Below are positions 48,320-55,037 of a stretch of 64,000 bases of DNA, one piece after another. Below the pieces are notes generated by a model that was not told the origin of the DNA, ran no database searches, and worked only from the letters and a program-made list of their open reading frames with translations. Both the position numbers and the translations under genes were made by a program. Position 1 is the stretch's first letter, and each line of letters begins with the position of its first letter. Source of the stretch: Escherichia coli 042 (GTDB lineage: Bacteria > Pseudomonadota > Gammaproteobacteria > Enterobacterales > Enterobacteriaceae); assembly GCF_000027125.1 (NCBI RefSeq), contig NC_017626.1. The stretch is one strand, 5' to 3'.

Positions 48320-49384
48320 ATGGAACATTTCGACGTGGCGATTATTGGCCTCGGCCCGGCAGGGTCGGCGTTGGCACGAAAGTTAGCCGGCAAAATGCAG
48401 GTGATCGCGCTGGATAAAAAGCATCAGCATGGTACTGAAGGTTTCAGTAAACCTTGCGGCGGTCTGCTGGCACCGGATGCGCAGCGATCTTTTATTCGCG
48501 ATGGACTGACGCTTCCGGTCGATGTGATCGCCAATCCGCAGATTTTCAGCGTCAAAACCGTCGACGTCGCCGCATCGCTCACGCGTAACTACCAGCGAAG
48601 CTATATCAATATTAATCGCCACGCTTTCGACTTGTGGATGAAATCGCTGATCCCCGCCAGCGTTGAGGTTTACCACGATAGCCTGTGCCGGAAAATCTGG
48701 CGTGAGGATGATAAATGGCATGTCATTTTTCGTGCAGACGGTTGGGAGCAGCATATTACCGCCCGCTATCTGGTCGGTGCCGATGGTGCCAACTCGATGG
48801 TGCGGCGACATCTCTACCCGGACCATCAAATTCGTAAATATGTCGCTATCCAGCAGTGGTTCGCAGAGAAGCATCCGGTGCCGTTCTACTCCTGCATCTT
48901 TGATAATGCGATAACTGACTGTTACTCATGGAGTATCAGCAAAGACGGTTATTTTATCTTTGGCGGTGCCTATCCCATGAAAGACGGTCAGACGCGTTTC
49001 ACGACGCTGAAAGAGAAAATGAACGCCTTTCAGTTCCAGTTTGGCAAAGCAGTGAAAAGCGAGAAATGTACCGTGCTGTTCCCCTCACGCTGGCAGGATT
49101 TTGTCTGCGGTAAGGACAACGCCTTTCTGATTGGTGAAGCGGCGGGATTTATCAGCGCCAGTTCGCTGGAGGGGATTAGCTATGCGCTGGATAGCGCAGA
49201 GATTCTGCGTTCGGTGTTACTGAAGCAGCCGGAGAAGAGCAACGCCGCCTACTGGCGCGCTACCCGCAAACTGCGTTTAAAACTCTTCGGTAAGATAGTA
49301 AAAAGCCGATGCCTGACCGCACCGGCTTTAAGAAAGTGGATTATGCGCAGTGGTGTGGCGCATATTCCACAGTTGAAAGATTAG
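48320..49384 (+). CDS. cbrA: FAD-dependent oxidoreductase CbrA (colicin E2 tolerance)
   Basis: [22 protein letters not shown]ossmann motif; 354 aa. Confidence 0.88.
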
Positions 49385-50673
49385 CCAACGCGCTTCACAT
49401 CGCCCACCAGCAGGATGTAAGAGAGCGCGCCAATCAACGCGACGGCGGAGATATAAACCAGTGCAGGTGCGAAACCGTAACCCTGCGCCAGGTACCCCAC
49501 CACCAGCGGAACGGTGATGCCGCCCAGACCACCGGCAAAGTTAAACACGCCGCCGGTTAAACCAATCAGGCGCATCGGTGCCAGAGAAGAAACCAGCGAC
49601 CAGGTAATCGAAGCAAAACCGTTACCGAAGAATGCCAGCGCCATCAGGCACATAATCATCATCGGATCGTTGGTGTAGTTAGCGCCCATAATGCAGGTGG
49701 AGATCAGCAAGCCGCAGATAATCGGCGTTTTACGCGCAAAGCCCAGTGAAAAGCCCTTACGTACCAGCAGATCCGCGACCCAGCCAGAGAGCAGGACGCC
49801 GACAAACGCCGCGAGGAATGGCACCGTGGTCATAAAGCCTGCTTTCAGCGCCGTGATTCCTTTTTCCTGGGTTAAATAGTTCGGGAACCAGGTTAAGAAA
49901 AACCACAGTGTAGAAGCCACCGCAAATTGCCCAAGATAGACACCGATCAGTTTACGATGGAACACCAGTTTCCAGTCTTTGGCTGTTAACGGCTGACGTG
50001 CCTCTTTTTTCACCGGCGCATCGCCATCCACCAGACCGCCGCCATCACGAATGTAATCCAGTTCAGCTTTGCTGATACCTTTGGTCAGGCGCGGCGGCTG
50101 ATAAACCTTAAACCAAATCAGCGACCAGATAATGCCGATACCACCAGTGACAATGAACACCCAGTGCCAGCTCAACATTTCCTGAATCCAGATCAGTAGC
50201 GGAGTCAGAAACGCCAGACCGACAAACTGACCAGACGTATAAAAACCAACGGCGGAAGCGCGTTCATGTTCCGGGAACCAGCTGGTCACCATCCGGTTAT
50301 TGGTCGGGAAAGCGGGCGCTTCGAAAATACCGGTTATCGCGCGCAGACCAATTAATGACATTAATCCCGTGGCAAAGCCCTGGAATAAAGTCGCCACTGA
50401 CCAGCCAAATATCGCAATAAAATAAGTCACGCGTGAACCTACGCGATCTAAGAACCAACCGCCGGGGATCTGGCATAACGTATAAAGCCATGCGAAGGCC
50501 GAAAATACATAGCCCATTTCCGCTTTCGTAATGCCGAACTCTTCCTGAATATGAGCGGAAGCCACGGCCAGGTTAGCGCGGTCAACATAACAAATGACCA
50601 CCGTAATAAAGATCATCACCAGCGTCAGATAACGCCGACGCCCCGGCTTTGCTGCATTAACGGGAATATCCAT
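49381..50673 (-). CDS. dgoT: D-galactonate:H+ symporter (MFS)
   Basis: Matches DgoT from [22 protein letters not shown]; 430 aa. Confidence 0.9.
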
Positions 50674-50792
50674 AGCGAGCTTTCTCCAGATTTTGGGCAT
50701 AGCGAAGCCGCTCACCATGCCCTGTAATTTACAGAGGGTTATATTTTTGTATTACTGTTTTAGTGCCCGATGAGGGGCTTACGTGGCAGGAA

Positions 50793-51941
50793 TTACCACT
50801 CTGCTACGCTGTTATCTTCATGACGCCAGAGCGGATTACGCCAGTCCGGGGCATTTTTACTGAACTCAATAACTTTAGCTTCGTCGATTTCCACGCCTAA
50901 GCCCGGTTTCGTTAGCGGTTTAAAGAAGCCGCCAACCATGCTGAAGTCTTCTTTGTTTTTCACAAAGTCGAGTAACTCCGCGCCTTTGTTGTAATGAATG
51001 CCCATACTTTGTTCCTGAAGTACGGCGTTATAGGAAACAAAGTCGATATGCAGACAAGCCGCCAGTGCAATCGGTCCGAGCGGACAGTGCGGCGCAAGTG
51101 TCACGTCATAGGCTTCTGCCATTCCGGCAATTTTGTAGCATTCGGTAATACCGCCTGCATGAGAGAGATCCGGTTGCAGAATCGAAATACCACCCGCCTC
51201 CAGCACACGTTTAAAATCGAAACGTGAGAACATGCGCTCACCCGCCGCCAGTGGAATATGCGTTTGTGCCGCCAGTTTCGGGTAGTATTCGGCTTGTTCC
51301 GCCAGCACCGGCTCTTCAATAAACAGCGGGCGATACGGCTCCAGTTCTTTAATCAGCACTTTCGCCATCGGCGCGCTGACGCGACCGTGGAAATCAAGAC
51401 CAAACTCAATCTGATTGCCAAAAGCTTCACGAATTTGTGCCACGGTGTTGACTGCCGCATCTACCGCGCGGGAGTTATCAATTAGCCCCAGCTCTTCACA
51501 ACCGTTCAGTTTGAAGGTATCGAAGCCGATTTCGCGCAGGGTTTTTATGCCGTCGATAACATCCGCCGGACGATCGCCGCCGACCCAACTGTAGGCTTTA
51601 ATTTTGTCGCGAACCAGGCCGCCCATCAGTTGCCACACCGGCGCATTCAGCACTTTGCCTTTGATATCCCATAACGCCTGGTCGATCCCGGCGATGGCGC
51701 TCATCAGGATTGGACCGCCACGATAAAATCCGGCGCGATACATCACTTGCCATAAGTCATTGATGCGCGATGGATCCTGACCAATCAAATAGTCACCCAG
51801 CTCGTGAACTGCCGCTTCCACCGTACGGGCGCGGCCTTCAATCACGGGCTCGCCCCAGCCGACCACGCCTTCATCGGTTTCAATTTTCAGGAACATCCAG
51901 CGGGGAGGTAAACGATACGTGGTAATTTTGGTGATTTTCAT
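50793..51941 (-). CDS. dgoD: D-galactonate dehydratase
   Basis: 382-aa enolase-superfamily protein in the dgo operon. Confidence 0.92.
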
Positions 51942-52555
51942 TGCACTGCCTCTCGATACGCCTTAACAAATGCTGCTGCCTGCTGCGCGGTGCGTTCTAT
52001 GGACTGCCCGGCGCGATAGAGATCGCTGCCTAAGCCTGCCCCTGCACAACCTGCGTCTATCCACTGCGCCAGGTTTTCTGGCGTCACGCCGCCAACGGCA
52101 AAGACTGCGATGTCCGGTGGTAATACCGCTTTTAACGCTTTGATGTATTGCGGACCAAAAGCCGATGACGGAAATATTTTCAGCGCCTGAGCGCCCGCGT
52201 CGAGCGCGGTAAAGGCTTCGGTCGCCGTCGCGCAGCCGGGGCAAACGGTCATGCCGTAGCCCACCGCACGGCGGATCACTTCACTATGGATATTGGGCGT
52301 AACGATGAGCTGGCAGCCCATCCTGGCGAGCACATCGACCTGTTCAGGTTTCAGTACCGTACCTGCGCCAATCAACGCCTTGTCGCCATACGCATCAACG
52401 ATGGCGGGAATGCTCTGCTCCCATTGTGGGGAATTCAGCGGGATTTCAACCGCGTCGAACCCGGCGTCAATCACCGCGCCAACATGCGCCAGCGCCTCGT
52501 CGGGCGTAATGCCGCGCAAAATGGCGATCAGCGGGAGTTTAGTTTGCCACTGCAT
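51938..52555 (-). CDS. dgoA: 2-dehydro-3-deoxy-6-phosphogalactonate aldolase
   Basis: 205 aa; overlaps the dgoD start and dgoK end. Confidence 0.92.
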
Positions 52556-53417
52556 GAGCGATGCTCCTTATACCAGCCTGAAATGCCGTGTCGCCCGCCA
52601 CCGCCGCCACGTCGCAACCCATCGCCTGAAAGGCTTGCTGGTAGCGCGCGGTCAGCGATGTTCCGGCGACAAGGGTGATGGCGTGTTGATGGGTCACATA
52701 GTCGCGCATACTGGCAACCTCTGCGCCAATCAACAAACCAGAGAGAAATTCACTGACCTGTTCGCGGGGAAGTGTTCCCAGCACATGCGAAGCGCGAACT
52801 TCAAAAAGCTGCGGCAATACGGCGGGAGCATTAAGGCCACGCTCAAGACCAGCCGCGAAGGCATCGGCAGAGTTTTCCTGCGGCGGCAAACCTGCGCCAA
52901 TCAATGAGTGATTTAACAGTAAATGATGTAATTCACCGGTCATCACGGTGCGAAAATCGTTGATTTGCTGGCTATCGGCCTGCACCCATTTGCAATGAGT
53001 ACCGGGCATAACATAAAGAGAGGAAGGAGCCAGAGCACGCGCGCCGATCAATTGTGTTTCTTCGCCGCGCATCACATTGTGGTTATCGTCATGAGAGACG
53101 CATAATCCGGGAATAATCCAGATATTGTCGCCAACCGACGTTAATTGTTCGCCAATAGACGAAAAACGGGCAGGAACAGATAAATACGGAGCAATTTTCC
53201 AGCCTACATTGCTGCCGACCATTCCTGCCATCACCACTGGCGTATTCTCTTCACGCCAGTCGGTCGTGACTTCTGCTAACACCGTAGCCGGAGATTTTCC
53301 GTTCAGGCGCGTGACGCCTGCTTCTGATTGCCTGCTGTCCAGGCAGTGGTCGCCCTGATAAAGCCAGGCGCGCAGATTGGTCGATCCCCAGTCAATTGCG
53401 ATGTAGCGAGCTGTCAT
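52539..53417 (-). CDS. dgoK: 2-dehydro-3-deoxygalactonokinase
   Basis: 292 aa; operon position. Confidence 0.92.
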   Translation of the reverse strand: MTARYIAIDWGSTNLRAWLYQGDHCLDSRQSEAGVTRLNGKSPATVLAEVTTDWREENTPVVMAGMVGSNVGWKIAPYLSVPARFSSIGEQLTSVGDNIWIIPGLCVSHDDNHNVMRGEETQLIGARALAPSSLYVMPGTHCKWVQADSQQINDFRTVMTGELHHLLLNHSLIGAGLPPQENSADAFAAGLERGLNAPAVLPQLFEVRASHVLGTLPREQVSEFLSGLLIGAEVASMRDYVTHQHAITLVAGTSLTARYQQAFQAMGCDVAAVAGDTAFQAGIRSIAHAVAN

Positions 53418-54103
53418 GTGATTTCCTTTAACCTTCGTGTCGAGCTGGCGATCATGGTAAGCGCCGCCTGCTCTGCCGCATCGCCGTCCTGATGCCGTAT
53501 TGCATCGAACAGCGCCTTATGTTCCTGGAGCGTTTGCGGCATGTTGGCCTCATCGCCCATCCAGGTTCGTTCAAAAACCGCCCGCTGCAACGAACTGATC
53601 GCAATGCTAAGTTGCTGTAACACCGGGTTATGTACCGACTGCAGCACCGCCTCGTGGTAGCGAATATCCGCTTCGTTAAACGCTTCGCGGTCCTGATTGT
53701 TGGCAATCATCTCGTTCAGCGCCGATTCAATCTGCGCCAGATCGCTGGAAGTCGCGCGCTCTGCTGCCCAACGGGCAATCGCCGGTTCCACCAGATTTCG
53801 CACTTCGCTCATTGCACTGATAAGCCGTGGGTCGTAGTCGTTTTCCAGCACCCATTGCAGTACGTCAGTGTCGAGGTAATTCCACTGGTTACGCGGAGCC
53901 ACAAACGCCCCGCGATAACGTTTCATTTCAATCAGCCGCTTCGCCATCAGCGAACGAAATACCTCACGGATGATGTTGCGCGAGGTTGCAAACTCCTCAC
54001 AGAGTTCCGCCTCAGCCGGAAGCGGCGAGCCTGGCACGTATTTACCGTGAACGATCTGTTTACCCAGCGTAATGACAATGCGATCGGTTTTATTGAGAGT
54101 CAT
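53414..54103 (-). CDS. dgoR: GntR/FadR-family repressor of the dgo operon
   Basis: 229 aa; N-terminal HTH; first gene of the dgo operon. Confidence 0.92.
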   Translation of the reverse strand: MTLNKTDRIVITLGKQIVHGKYVPGSPLPAEAELCEEFATSRNIIREVFRSLMAKRLIEMKRYRGAFVAPRNQWNYLDTDVLQWVLENDYDPRLISAMSEVRNLVEPAIARWAAERATSSDLAQIESALNEMIANNQDREAFNEADIRYHEAVLQSVHNPVLQQLSIAISSLQRAVFERTWMGDEANMPQTLQEHKALFDAIRHQDGDAAEQAALTMIASSTRRLKEIT

Positions 54104-54167
54104 GGAGAGTCCTTGTGCTCTGTATGTTCTTCTCTACTTTACCCCGATCGATGCATAACGCGGCAAC

Positions 54168-54242
54168 TTTGTAGTACCAGCGTGATGACGTTCGCGTTTG
54201 CCGTGTGCGTAATGTAGTACAAAATTATATTGTTGTACTACA
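54168..54242. promoter_or_regulatory. dgo promoter/operator with repeated TGTAGTACA-type DgoR sites
   Basis: tttgtagtacc (54168..54178), atgtagtacaa (54212..54222) and ttgtactacaa (54232..54242) upstream of dgoR. Confidence 0.7.
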
Positions 54243-54380
54243 ATTTAGATCACAAAAAGAACAATGCATAAAAAAATGACATGCGTCGGGCAGAAATCTG
54301 AAAAGGGATATCAGGCGCTAAACAGGAGGAAAAGAAGAGTATGCTTTCAACGGCTTAGCTACTCGTTTAAAGGATTAATC

Positions 54381-55037
54381 ATGAAGTTGAATTTTAAGGG
54401 ATTTTTTAAGGCTGCCGGTTTATTCCCACTGGCGCTGATGCTTTCGGGCTGTATCTCGTATGCCCTGGTTTCCCATACCGCAAAGGGTACTTCAGGAAAG
54501 TATCAATCGCAGTCAGACACCATCACGGGGCTATCGCAGGCAAAAGATAGTAATGGAACAAAAGGCTATGTTTTTGTAGGGGAATCGCTGGACTACCTTA
54601 TCACTGATGGTGCCGATGACATCGTTAAAATGCTCAATGATCCAGCACTTAACCGGCACAATATTCAGGTTGCTGATGACGCAAGATTTGTTTTAAATGC
54701 GGGGAAAAAGAAATTTACCGGCACAATATCGCTTTACTACTACTGGAATAACGAAGAAGAAAAGGCACTGGCAACTCATTATGGTTTTGCCTGTGGTGTT
54801 CAACACTGTACCAGGTCACTGGAAAACCTAAAAGGCACAATCCATGAGAAAAATAAAAACATGGATTACTCAAAGGTAATGGCGTTCTACCATCCATTTA
54901 AAGTGCGATTTTATGAATACTATTCACCCAGAGGCATTCCGGATGGTGTTTCCGCAGCATTACTGCCAGTGACTGTTACGCTGGACATCATTACTGCACC
55001 GCTGCAATTTCTGGTTGTATATGCAGTAAACCAATAA
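54381..55037 (+). CDS. yidX: Lipoprotein YidX
   Basis: Start at 54381 after [30 protein letters not shown] lipobox; 218 aa. Confidence 0.85.

Follow-up and report, generated by a model that had tools for sequence, protein, structure and literature searches.

The dgo control region of Escherichia coli carries three copies of an 11-bp dyad upstream of dgoR. Experiments have established two of them, IR1 and IR2, as DgoR operators; the third, here called site 3, is probably a weaker, auxiliary DgoR operator that acts beside them. The triplet itself is already known, two of its operators having been proven experimentally and the third having been predicted by comparative genomics in 2015. Our analysis adds that site 3 is an island of conservation, that it is spaced 43 ± 1 bp from IR2, that it carries one or the other of two mutually exclusive defects, and that it adjoins a conserved promoter, P2. 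From the sequence evidence at hand, namely, the fit to the motif, the listing in PMC4494728, conservation, fixed spacing, and linkage to dgoR, we infer an operator role for site 3.

Three dyads upstream of dgoR

The 64-kb stretch analyzed here (the window) contains dgoRKADT on its minus strand. The first gene, dgoR (53414-54103), encodes a GntR/FadR-family repressor of 229 amino acids with a full-length match to PDB 7C7E, E. coli DgoR (497 bits, E=3.7e-149), and a domain search recovered the GntR wHTH (PF00392) and FCD (PF07729) domains; judged from its sequence, the protein encoded downstream of the motifs is DgoR. The structural genes of the operon are dgoK (52539-53417; DGOK, PF05035), dgoA (51938-52555), dgoD (50793-51941), and dgoT (open reading frame 49381-50718), and between 49381 and 53417 they give the NCBIfam/Pfam matches PF05035, NF006600, NF010624, and TIGR00893. 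The divergent gene yidX (54381-55037, plus strand) shares a 277-bp intergenic region with dgoR. As the A of the dgoR ATG is nucleotide 54103, position -n corresponds to window coordinate 54103+n. The 351 bp surrounding the motifs are 100% identical to the sequence of E. coli strain KK19-02, and the region was found in 5,424 of 5,426 complete E. coli genomes. A scan of 53900-54500 gave no Rfam match, and an RNA-level reading of the region was dropped for this reason.

The earlier note had described three closely spaced copies of a palindromic half-site in this region. A pattern search with its 9-mers located all three, TGTAGTACC at 54170-54178 with one mismatch, TGTAGTACA at 54213-54221 as an exact match, and TGTACTACA at 54234-54242 as an exact match on the minus strand. 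The term half-site is incorrect, since every copy comprises both arms of a dyad and has the length that a single repressor dimer binds. The motif has the form TTGTA-N-TACAA, and its copies lie 66 to 140 bp upstream of dgoR. On the minus strand, IR1 (TTGTAGTACAA; 54233-54243, -140 to -130 from the ATG) is a perfect dyad with 10/10 matches, and IR2 (TTGTACTACAT; 54212-54222, -119 to -109) scores 9/10, with a single mismatch in its last base, a T. Site 3 (TGGTACTACAA; 54169-54179, -76 to -66), the predicted weak or auxiliary operator, also scores 9/10, and its repaired form would be TTGTACTACAA. The copies at 54213 and 54234 seem to be reverse complements of each other because each is nearly palindromic, with a central G in one and a central C in the other. 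We also rejected a longer inverted repeat covering both IR2 and IR1, as it is a by-product of these two near-palindromes.

Five positions in the window carry an 11-mer that matches TTGTANTACAA at 9 or more of 10 positions, compared with 1.5 ± 1.2 in shuffled sequence, and three of the five fall inside 75 bp. Since none of 500 shuffles of the window placed even two such sites within 80 bp, a chance origin of the triplet is excluded. The strict FadR-type pattern TKGTANTACMA is matched exactly by IR1 and site 3, which are its only two matches in 64 kb (0.18 expected); the published consensus of the FadR subfamily is TKGT-N3-ACMA (PMC4494728). One-mismatch copies of the 9-mers elsewhere in the window (27240, 29763, 31537, and 61511) are at chance level, with 9 matches in total versus 7.1 expected. 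The dyad centers are separated by 21 bp (IR1 to IR2), 43 bp (IR2 to site 3), and 64 bp (IR1 to site 3), which amounts to approximately two, four, and six helical turns, so that the three dyads share one face of the helix.

Published operators and the prediction of site 3

The experimental record concerns the two distal copies. The IR1 oligonucleotide used in PMC11705089, 5'-ATATTGTTGTACTACAATTTAG-3', is identical to window 54228-54249, and the same paper describes IR1 as perfect and IR2 as having one mismatch. DgoR, reported there as a dimer and mentioned in dimer form in RegulonDB v12, binds the promoter as two homodimers at two closely spaced inverted repeats that overlap the dgo promoter (PMC11705089; the two-repeat model also appears in PMC12288454), and the 55-nt electrophoretic mobility shift assay (EMSA) probe spans just these two repeats (PMC11705089). 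As cited in these two papers, the model goes back to Singh et al. 2019. Using Sort-Seq, Belliveau et al. (2018) identified a DgoR-dependent repressor footprint at -140 to -110 and pulled down DgoR with DNA from -145 to -110 (PMC6003448). The footprint corresponds to window 54213-54243 and holds IR1, and the pulldown region corresponds to 54213-54248; site 3 lies outside both. Binding of DgoR that is released by galactonate has been published for the IR1/IR2 fragment (PMC11705089, PMC12288454, and PMC7674646). A 250-bp EMSA yielded a "stable complex" with the number of sites unspecified (PMC7674646), and the Reg-Seq paper gives the DgoR sites as one upstream and one right.

The comparison with published DgoR operators that the earlier note had proposed can thus be drawn directly, as the oligonucleotide, the footprint, and the pulldown all map onto the window. 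The window copies share sequence, position, regulator, inducer, and CRP-promoter overlap with the E. coli operators IR1 and IR2. Autoregulation of dgoRKADT by DgoR, which the note had linked to all three copies, is published for these two. Its treatment of all three copies as equivalent does not hold, as IR1 and IR2 are experimentally bound and site 3 is a published computational prediction. Dyad form, location in the dgo control region beside dgoR, and a phylogenetic footprint are common to all three sites, and identity with experimentally bound DNA is found for IR1 and IR2 only.

The prediction was made by Suvorova, Korostelev, and Gelfand (2015), whose S1 file lists three DgoR sites upstream of E. 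coli dgoR, including CACGCTGGTACTACAAAGTTG (PMC4494728), a sequence that window 54164-54184 reproduces exactly on its minus strand. Equivalent triplets are given for E. fergusonii, Enterobacter, Cronobacter, Klebsiella, Shigella, and Salmonella, which together with E. coli makes seven enterobacterial genomes (PMC4494728). The IR2 listed for K-12, TAAGTTTGTACTACATTACAC, differs from TAATTTTGTACTACATTACGC in the window by strain-level changes in the flanks only. Spacing, affinity hierarchy, and promoter context do not form part of that listing. The IR1 listed there for Shigella flexneri (DgoR_SFL), TTGTAGCGCAA, has two changes in an almost invariant perfect operator, which may point to dgo being in decay or derepressed in Shigella.

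In the accessible literature, in which Singh et al. 2019 is represented by the papers citing it, we found no report of DgoR binding at site 3, and a literature search for "IR3" or a third inverted repeat of dgo returned nothing relevant. In the main text and preprint of the Sort-Seq study, a repressor-type signal is reported at -140 to -110 only and none at site 3 (PMC6003448). The main alternative, which we consider rather unlikely, is that IR1 and IR2 are the only DgoR operators. Site 3 would then be conserved as a -35-proximal or UP-like element of P2 or as the site of another factor, and its likeness to the DgoR motif would be coincidental or left over from an ancient duplication. The published experimental model has two sites (PMC11705089 and PMC12288454) and thus lacks the third copy seen in the window, and Sort-Seq, as reported in the main text and preprint, assigns -30 to -70 to RNA polymerase without a repressor signal, both of which are in line with this alternative. 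Site 3 was, however, called a DgoR site by an independent comparative-genomics study (PMC4494728), and the restriction of TKGTANTACMA to site 3 and IR1 within 64 kb likewise argues against an incidental likeness.

Conservation of site 3 in Enterobacterales

The cross-species comparison drew on dgoR loci from 80 Enterobacterales species. One locus, whose contig ends inside dgoR, was left out of the upstream comparison, and the upstream regions of the other 79 plus the window gave 80 sequences, of which 79 were distinct (the window and 78 loci) and made up the alignment. IR1 scores 10/10 in 74 of the 80 sequences and IR2 9/10 in 73, with their centers 21 bp apart in every case. Site 3 is present at the same place with at least 8/10 matches in 78 of the 80; it scores 9/10 in 67, 8/10 in 11, and 10/10 in none. 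IR2 and site 3 are 43 bp apart in 71 sequences, 42 bp in 6, and 44 bp in 3. At the protein level, the loci show 79 to 99% identity in DgoR, and their spacers have diverged, so the loci are not near-identical recent transfers.

In the alignment, conservation is confined to islands, comprising the CRP half-site, IR1, IR2, site 3, the bases T-62, G-61, G-59, and G-58, and the hexamer TAAAGT. Within site 3, columns G-74, T-73, A-72, C-68, A-67, and A-66 are each kept in 77 to 79 of 79 sequences. The spacers at -127 to -120 and -107 to -83, the second being the 25 bp upstream of site 3, are unconserved. Intergeneric indels are nearly absent from the stretch between -181 and -28 but occur often on either side of it, and conservation ends at about -165 from dgoR. 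In five E. coli strains with at most 7% divergence in the intergenic region, all three dyads are invariant and the changes lie in the spacers.

A functionless site 3, matching the motif by chance or neutrally, is extremely improbable. Its single mismatch and its status as a site predicted from sequence would be compatible with such an origin, but the shuffles speak against it, and the retention of its position and core in 78 of 80 sequences beside unconserved flanks effectively refutes it. We assign an equally slight probability to the idea that the repeats control the divergent yidX instead of, or besides, dgoR. They do lie in the shared 277-bp intergenic region, 138 to 212 bp upstream of the yidX start. 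Nevertheless, a yidX homolog is adjacent in only 3 of the 80 loci, whereas dgoK follows dgoR in all 80, so that the three-site module, present in nearly all loci, tracks dgoR and dgoK rather than yidX. The loss of conservation at about -165 and the frequent indels beyond -181 also argue against a role at yidX, and the published footprints concern the dgo promoter (PMC6003448).

The imperfection of site 3 follows a pattern of its own. A T at position 2 combined with a base other than A at position 8 is found in 61 of the 80 sequences; the opposite arrangement, A at position 8 with a base other than T at position 2, is seen in 16, with E. coli, Salmonella, Klebsiella, and Citrobacter among them. 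Three sequences lack both matches, and no sequence combines them. A Fisher test on positions 2 and 8 gives p=3.6e-14, a value that is descriptive, as the test assumes independent species and these are related. Such mutually exclusive defects suggest, as far as sequence can tell, that a site one step from the consensus is maintained. In 64 of the 80 sequences, G or T stands in place of the A in the right-hand AC, and binding of one DgoR monomer should weaken as a result.

These counts can be read in two ways. If IR1 and IR2 were the only DgoR operators, it would be natural that site 3 is never perfect and usually lacks the canonical right-hand AC, and that it adjoins the conserved T-62, G-61, G-59, and G-58 upstream of the invariant TAAAGT. 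However, the invariant bases T1, G3, T4, A5, T7, C9, A10, and A11 are columns of the DgoR dyad, not of TTGACA, and the mutual exclusion at positions 2 and 8 (61 plus 16 sequences with one match, none with both) looks like selection on the total match to the motif. These observations favor an auxiliary DgoR operator at site 3.

An outer pair, TCA at -82 to -80 and TGA at -62 to -60 (window 54183-54185 and 54163-54165), flanks site 3 in most species, so that the symmetric stretch reaches about 23 bp. The pair could mark the edge of the DgoR footprint or a site for another protein; a larger site for a different protein would agree with the alternative in which DgoR is restricted to IR1 and IR2. 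Site 3 is unrecognizable in two loci, L079 (Affinibrenneria salicis) and L056 (6/10 and 7/10), and two DgoR sites are listed for Pectobacterium (PMC4494728). The third dyad may be confined to Enterobacteriaceae, Erwiniaceae, and some Yersiniaceae.

Promoter context and a model for site 3

The three dyads are interleaved with the elements of two promoters. A class II CRP site was matched by pattern at 54239-54254 on the minus strand (TGTGATCTAAATTGTA), its right half overlapping IR1 by 5 bp, in agreement with the class II site with TGTGA that Belliveau et al. placed at -160 to -140 (PMC6003448). The TGTGATC columns of this site are kept in 72 to 79 of 79 sequences. In E. coli O43 RM10042 (L083), TATGA replaces the TGTGA half-site upstream of IR1 (aligned to window 54253), and this change might weaken CRP activation of dgo in that strain. 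IR1 overlaps the right half of the CRP site and the -35 region of the inducible promoter, P1, and the P1 -10 hexamer TACATT, the wild-type -10 named by Belliveau et al. (PMC6003448), lies within IR2 (54211-54216, minus strand; -113 to -108). Its columns are kept in 79 (T), 79 (A), 79 (C), 64 (A), 58 (T), and 79 (T) of 79 sequences. Because IR2 ends in T rather than A, TACATT keeps its invariant last T (T-108, 79/79), and the IR2 mismatch suggests, on sequence grounds, a dual constraint in which repressor and polymerase act on the same bases.

Sort-Seq also revealed an additional RNA polymerase site at -30 to -70 that is active in glucose (Belliveau et al., PMC6003448). In this interval, TAAAGT (54136-54141, minus strand; -38 to -33) is essentially invariant, with each position kept in 76 to 79 of 79 sequences, and is the probable -10 of a basal promoter, P2, as inferred from the hexamer. 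A candidate -35, TTGCCG (54161-54166, minus strand; -63 to -58), is a weak assignment, and the spacer between the two hexamers would have an unusual 19 bp. The bases T-62, G-61, G-59, and G-58, kept in 66 to 78 of 79 sequences, form the pattern TG-N-GG (TGCCG in the window, 54161-54165), and together with TAAAGT they probably make up the basal promoter of dgoR located by Sort-Seq at -30 to -70. A consensus scan of 54050-54420 found no sigma-70 promoters or terminators, which agrees with weak or activator-dependent promoters and makes the call of the P2 -35 a weak one.

The place of site 3 within this layout depends on start sites that we took from the hexamers of P1 and P2. With TACATT as the -10, P1 transcription would start near -101, putting site 3 at approximately +25 to +35 of the P1 transcript; site 3 ends 2 bp upstream of the candidate P2 -35. 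In E. coli, site 3 is enclosed by a 9-nt inverted repeat, ACGCGGCAA/TTGCCGTGT (54158-54166 and 54198-54206; 89% complementary), whose arms could base-pair in the 5' leader of the P1 transcript; in the alignment, the repeat is not conserved across genera.

According to the published work mapped to the window, DgoR dimers bound at IR1 and IR2 sit over the -10 element of P1 and over its -35 and CRP elements, and RNA polymerase and CRP are thereby blocked at this promoter. D-Galactonate releases DgoR, whereupon CRP-cAMP activates P1 and the whole of dgoRKADT is transcribed; as dgoR is the first gene of the operon, the circuit is autoregulated. We propose that site 3 would be placed to act on the second promoter. 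It lies 43 bp downstream of IR2 on the same helix face, roughly 30 bp past the inferred P1 start and immediately ahead of the candidate P2 -35, so that a DgoR dimer bound there would overlap the P2 -35 region. In this position, DgoR would most likely limit P2 once it is abundant, and this would set the resting level of DgoR. The RNA polymerase site at -30 to -70 is active in glucose while DgoR is bound, and site 3 is therefore at best a weak repressor element in the reporter.

Occupancy of site 3 may also stabilize the complex on IR1 and IR2, by analogy with the downstream operator in lldPRD. LldR is a related GntR/FadR repressor of the sugar-acid or organic-acid type, and lldPRD has one operator (O1/O2) on either side of its core promoter, upstream and downstream, with repression reported to require the same angular orientation (PMC8689689). 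The dgo region differs in its three dyads, of which two sit on the core promoter itself, and in a regulator described as a dimer. The helical phase of the dgo operators and the spacing of 43 ± 1 bp in all 80 sequences, although the spacer itself is unconserved, are what a loop would require. A loop of 43 to 64 bp between dimers is, on the other hand, energetically demanding, and with a dimeric DgoR this counts against looping.

FadR operators such as those of fadB and fabA are dyads of the TGGT-N3-ACCA type that bind one dimer per dyad, and the dgo dyads belong to the same class. With FadR, the outcome depends on position, as overlap with the core promoter leads to repression and a site at about -40, as at fabA, leads to activation. 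The center of site 3, at approximately -45 from a P2 start that again depends on the hexamer, fits neither classical activator position, and we know of no activation by DgoR.

More tentatively, we envisage site 3 as an overlooked third operator that selection keeps suboptimal, throttling P2 and with it the resting supply of DgoR, locking a short loop with IR1 and IR2, or both; this is possible, and we put it forward with less confidence than the auxiliary operator role as such. If it were true, the dgo switch would contain a graded hierarchy, IR1 > IR2 > site 3. This switch is a well-studied model for GntR/FadR regulators of sugar acids and for the use of D-galactonate by gut E. coli, and the import of our analysis is small beyond correct annotation. 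What it brings out is a mismatch between the experimental models, with two operators, and comparative genomics, with a third, strictly positioned and imperfect dyad by the basal promoter. Should site 3 prove functional, one operator would be missing from quantitative models of dgo autoregulation and from the EMSA probes with which DgoR affinity is measured.

Apart from the dgo region, the pattern search that matched the CRP site returned repeated TGTGATGACCGTCGGA matches, which originate in a giant open reading frame of 3,806 amino acids (window 3271-14691, minus strand). Its tandem repeats, at 5439-11238, comprise approximately 20 units of 291 bp (97 amino acids) with 87% matches, and the product resembles a giant repeat protein of the adhesin type.
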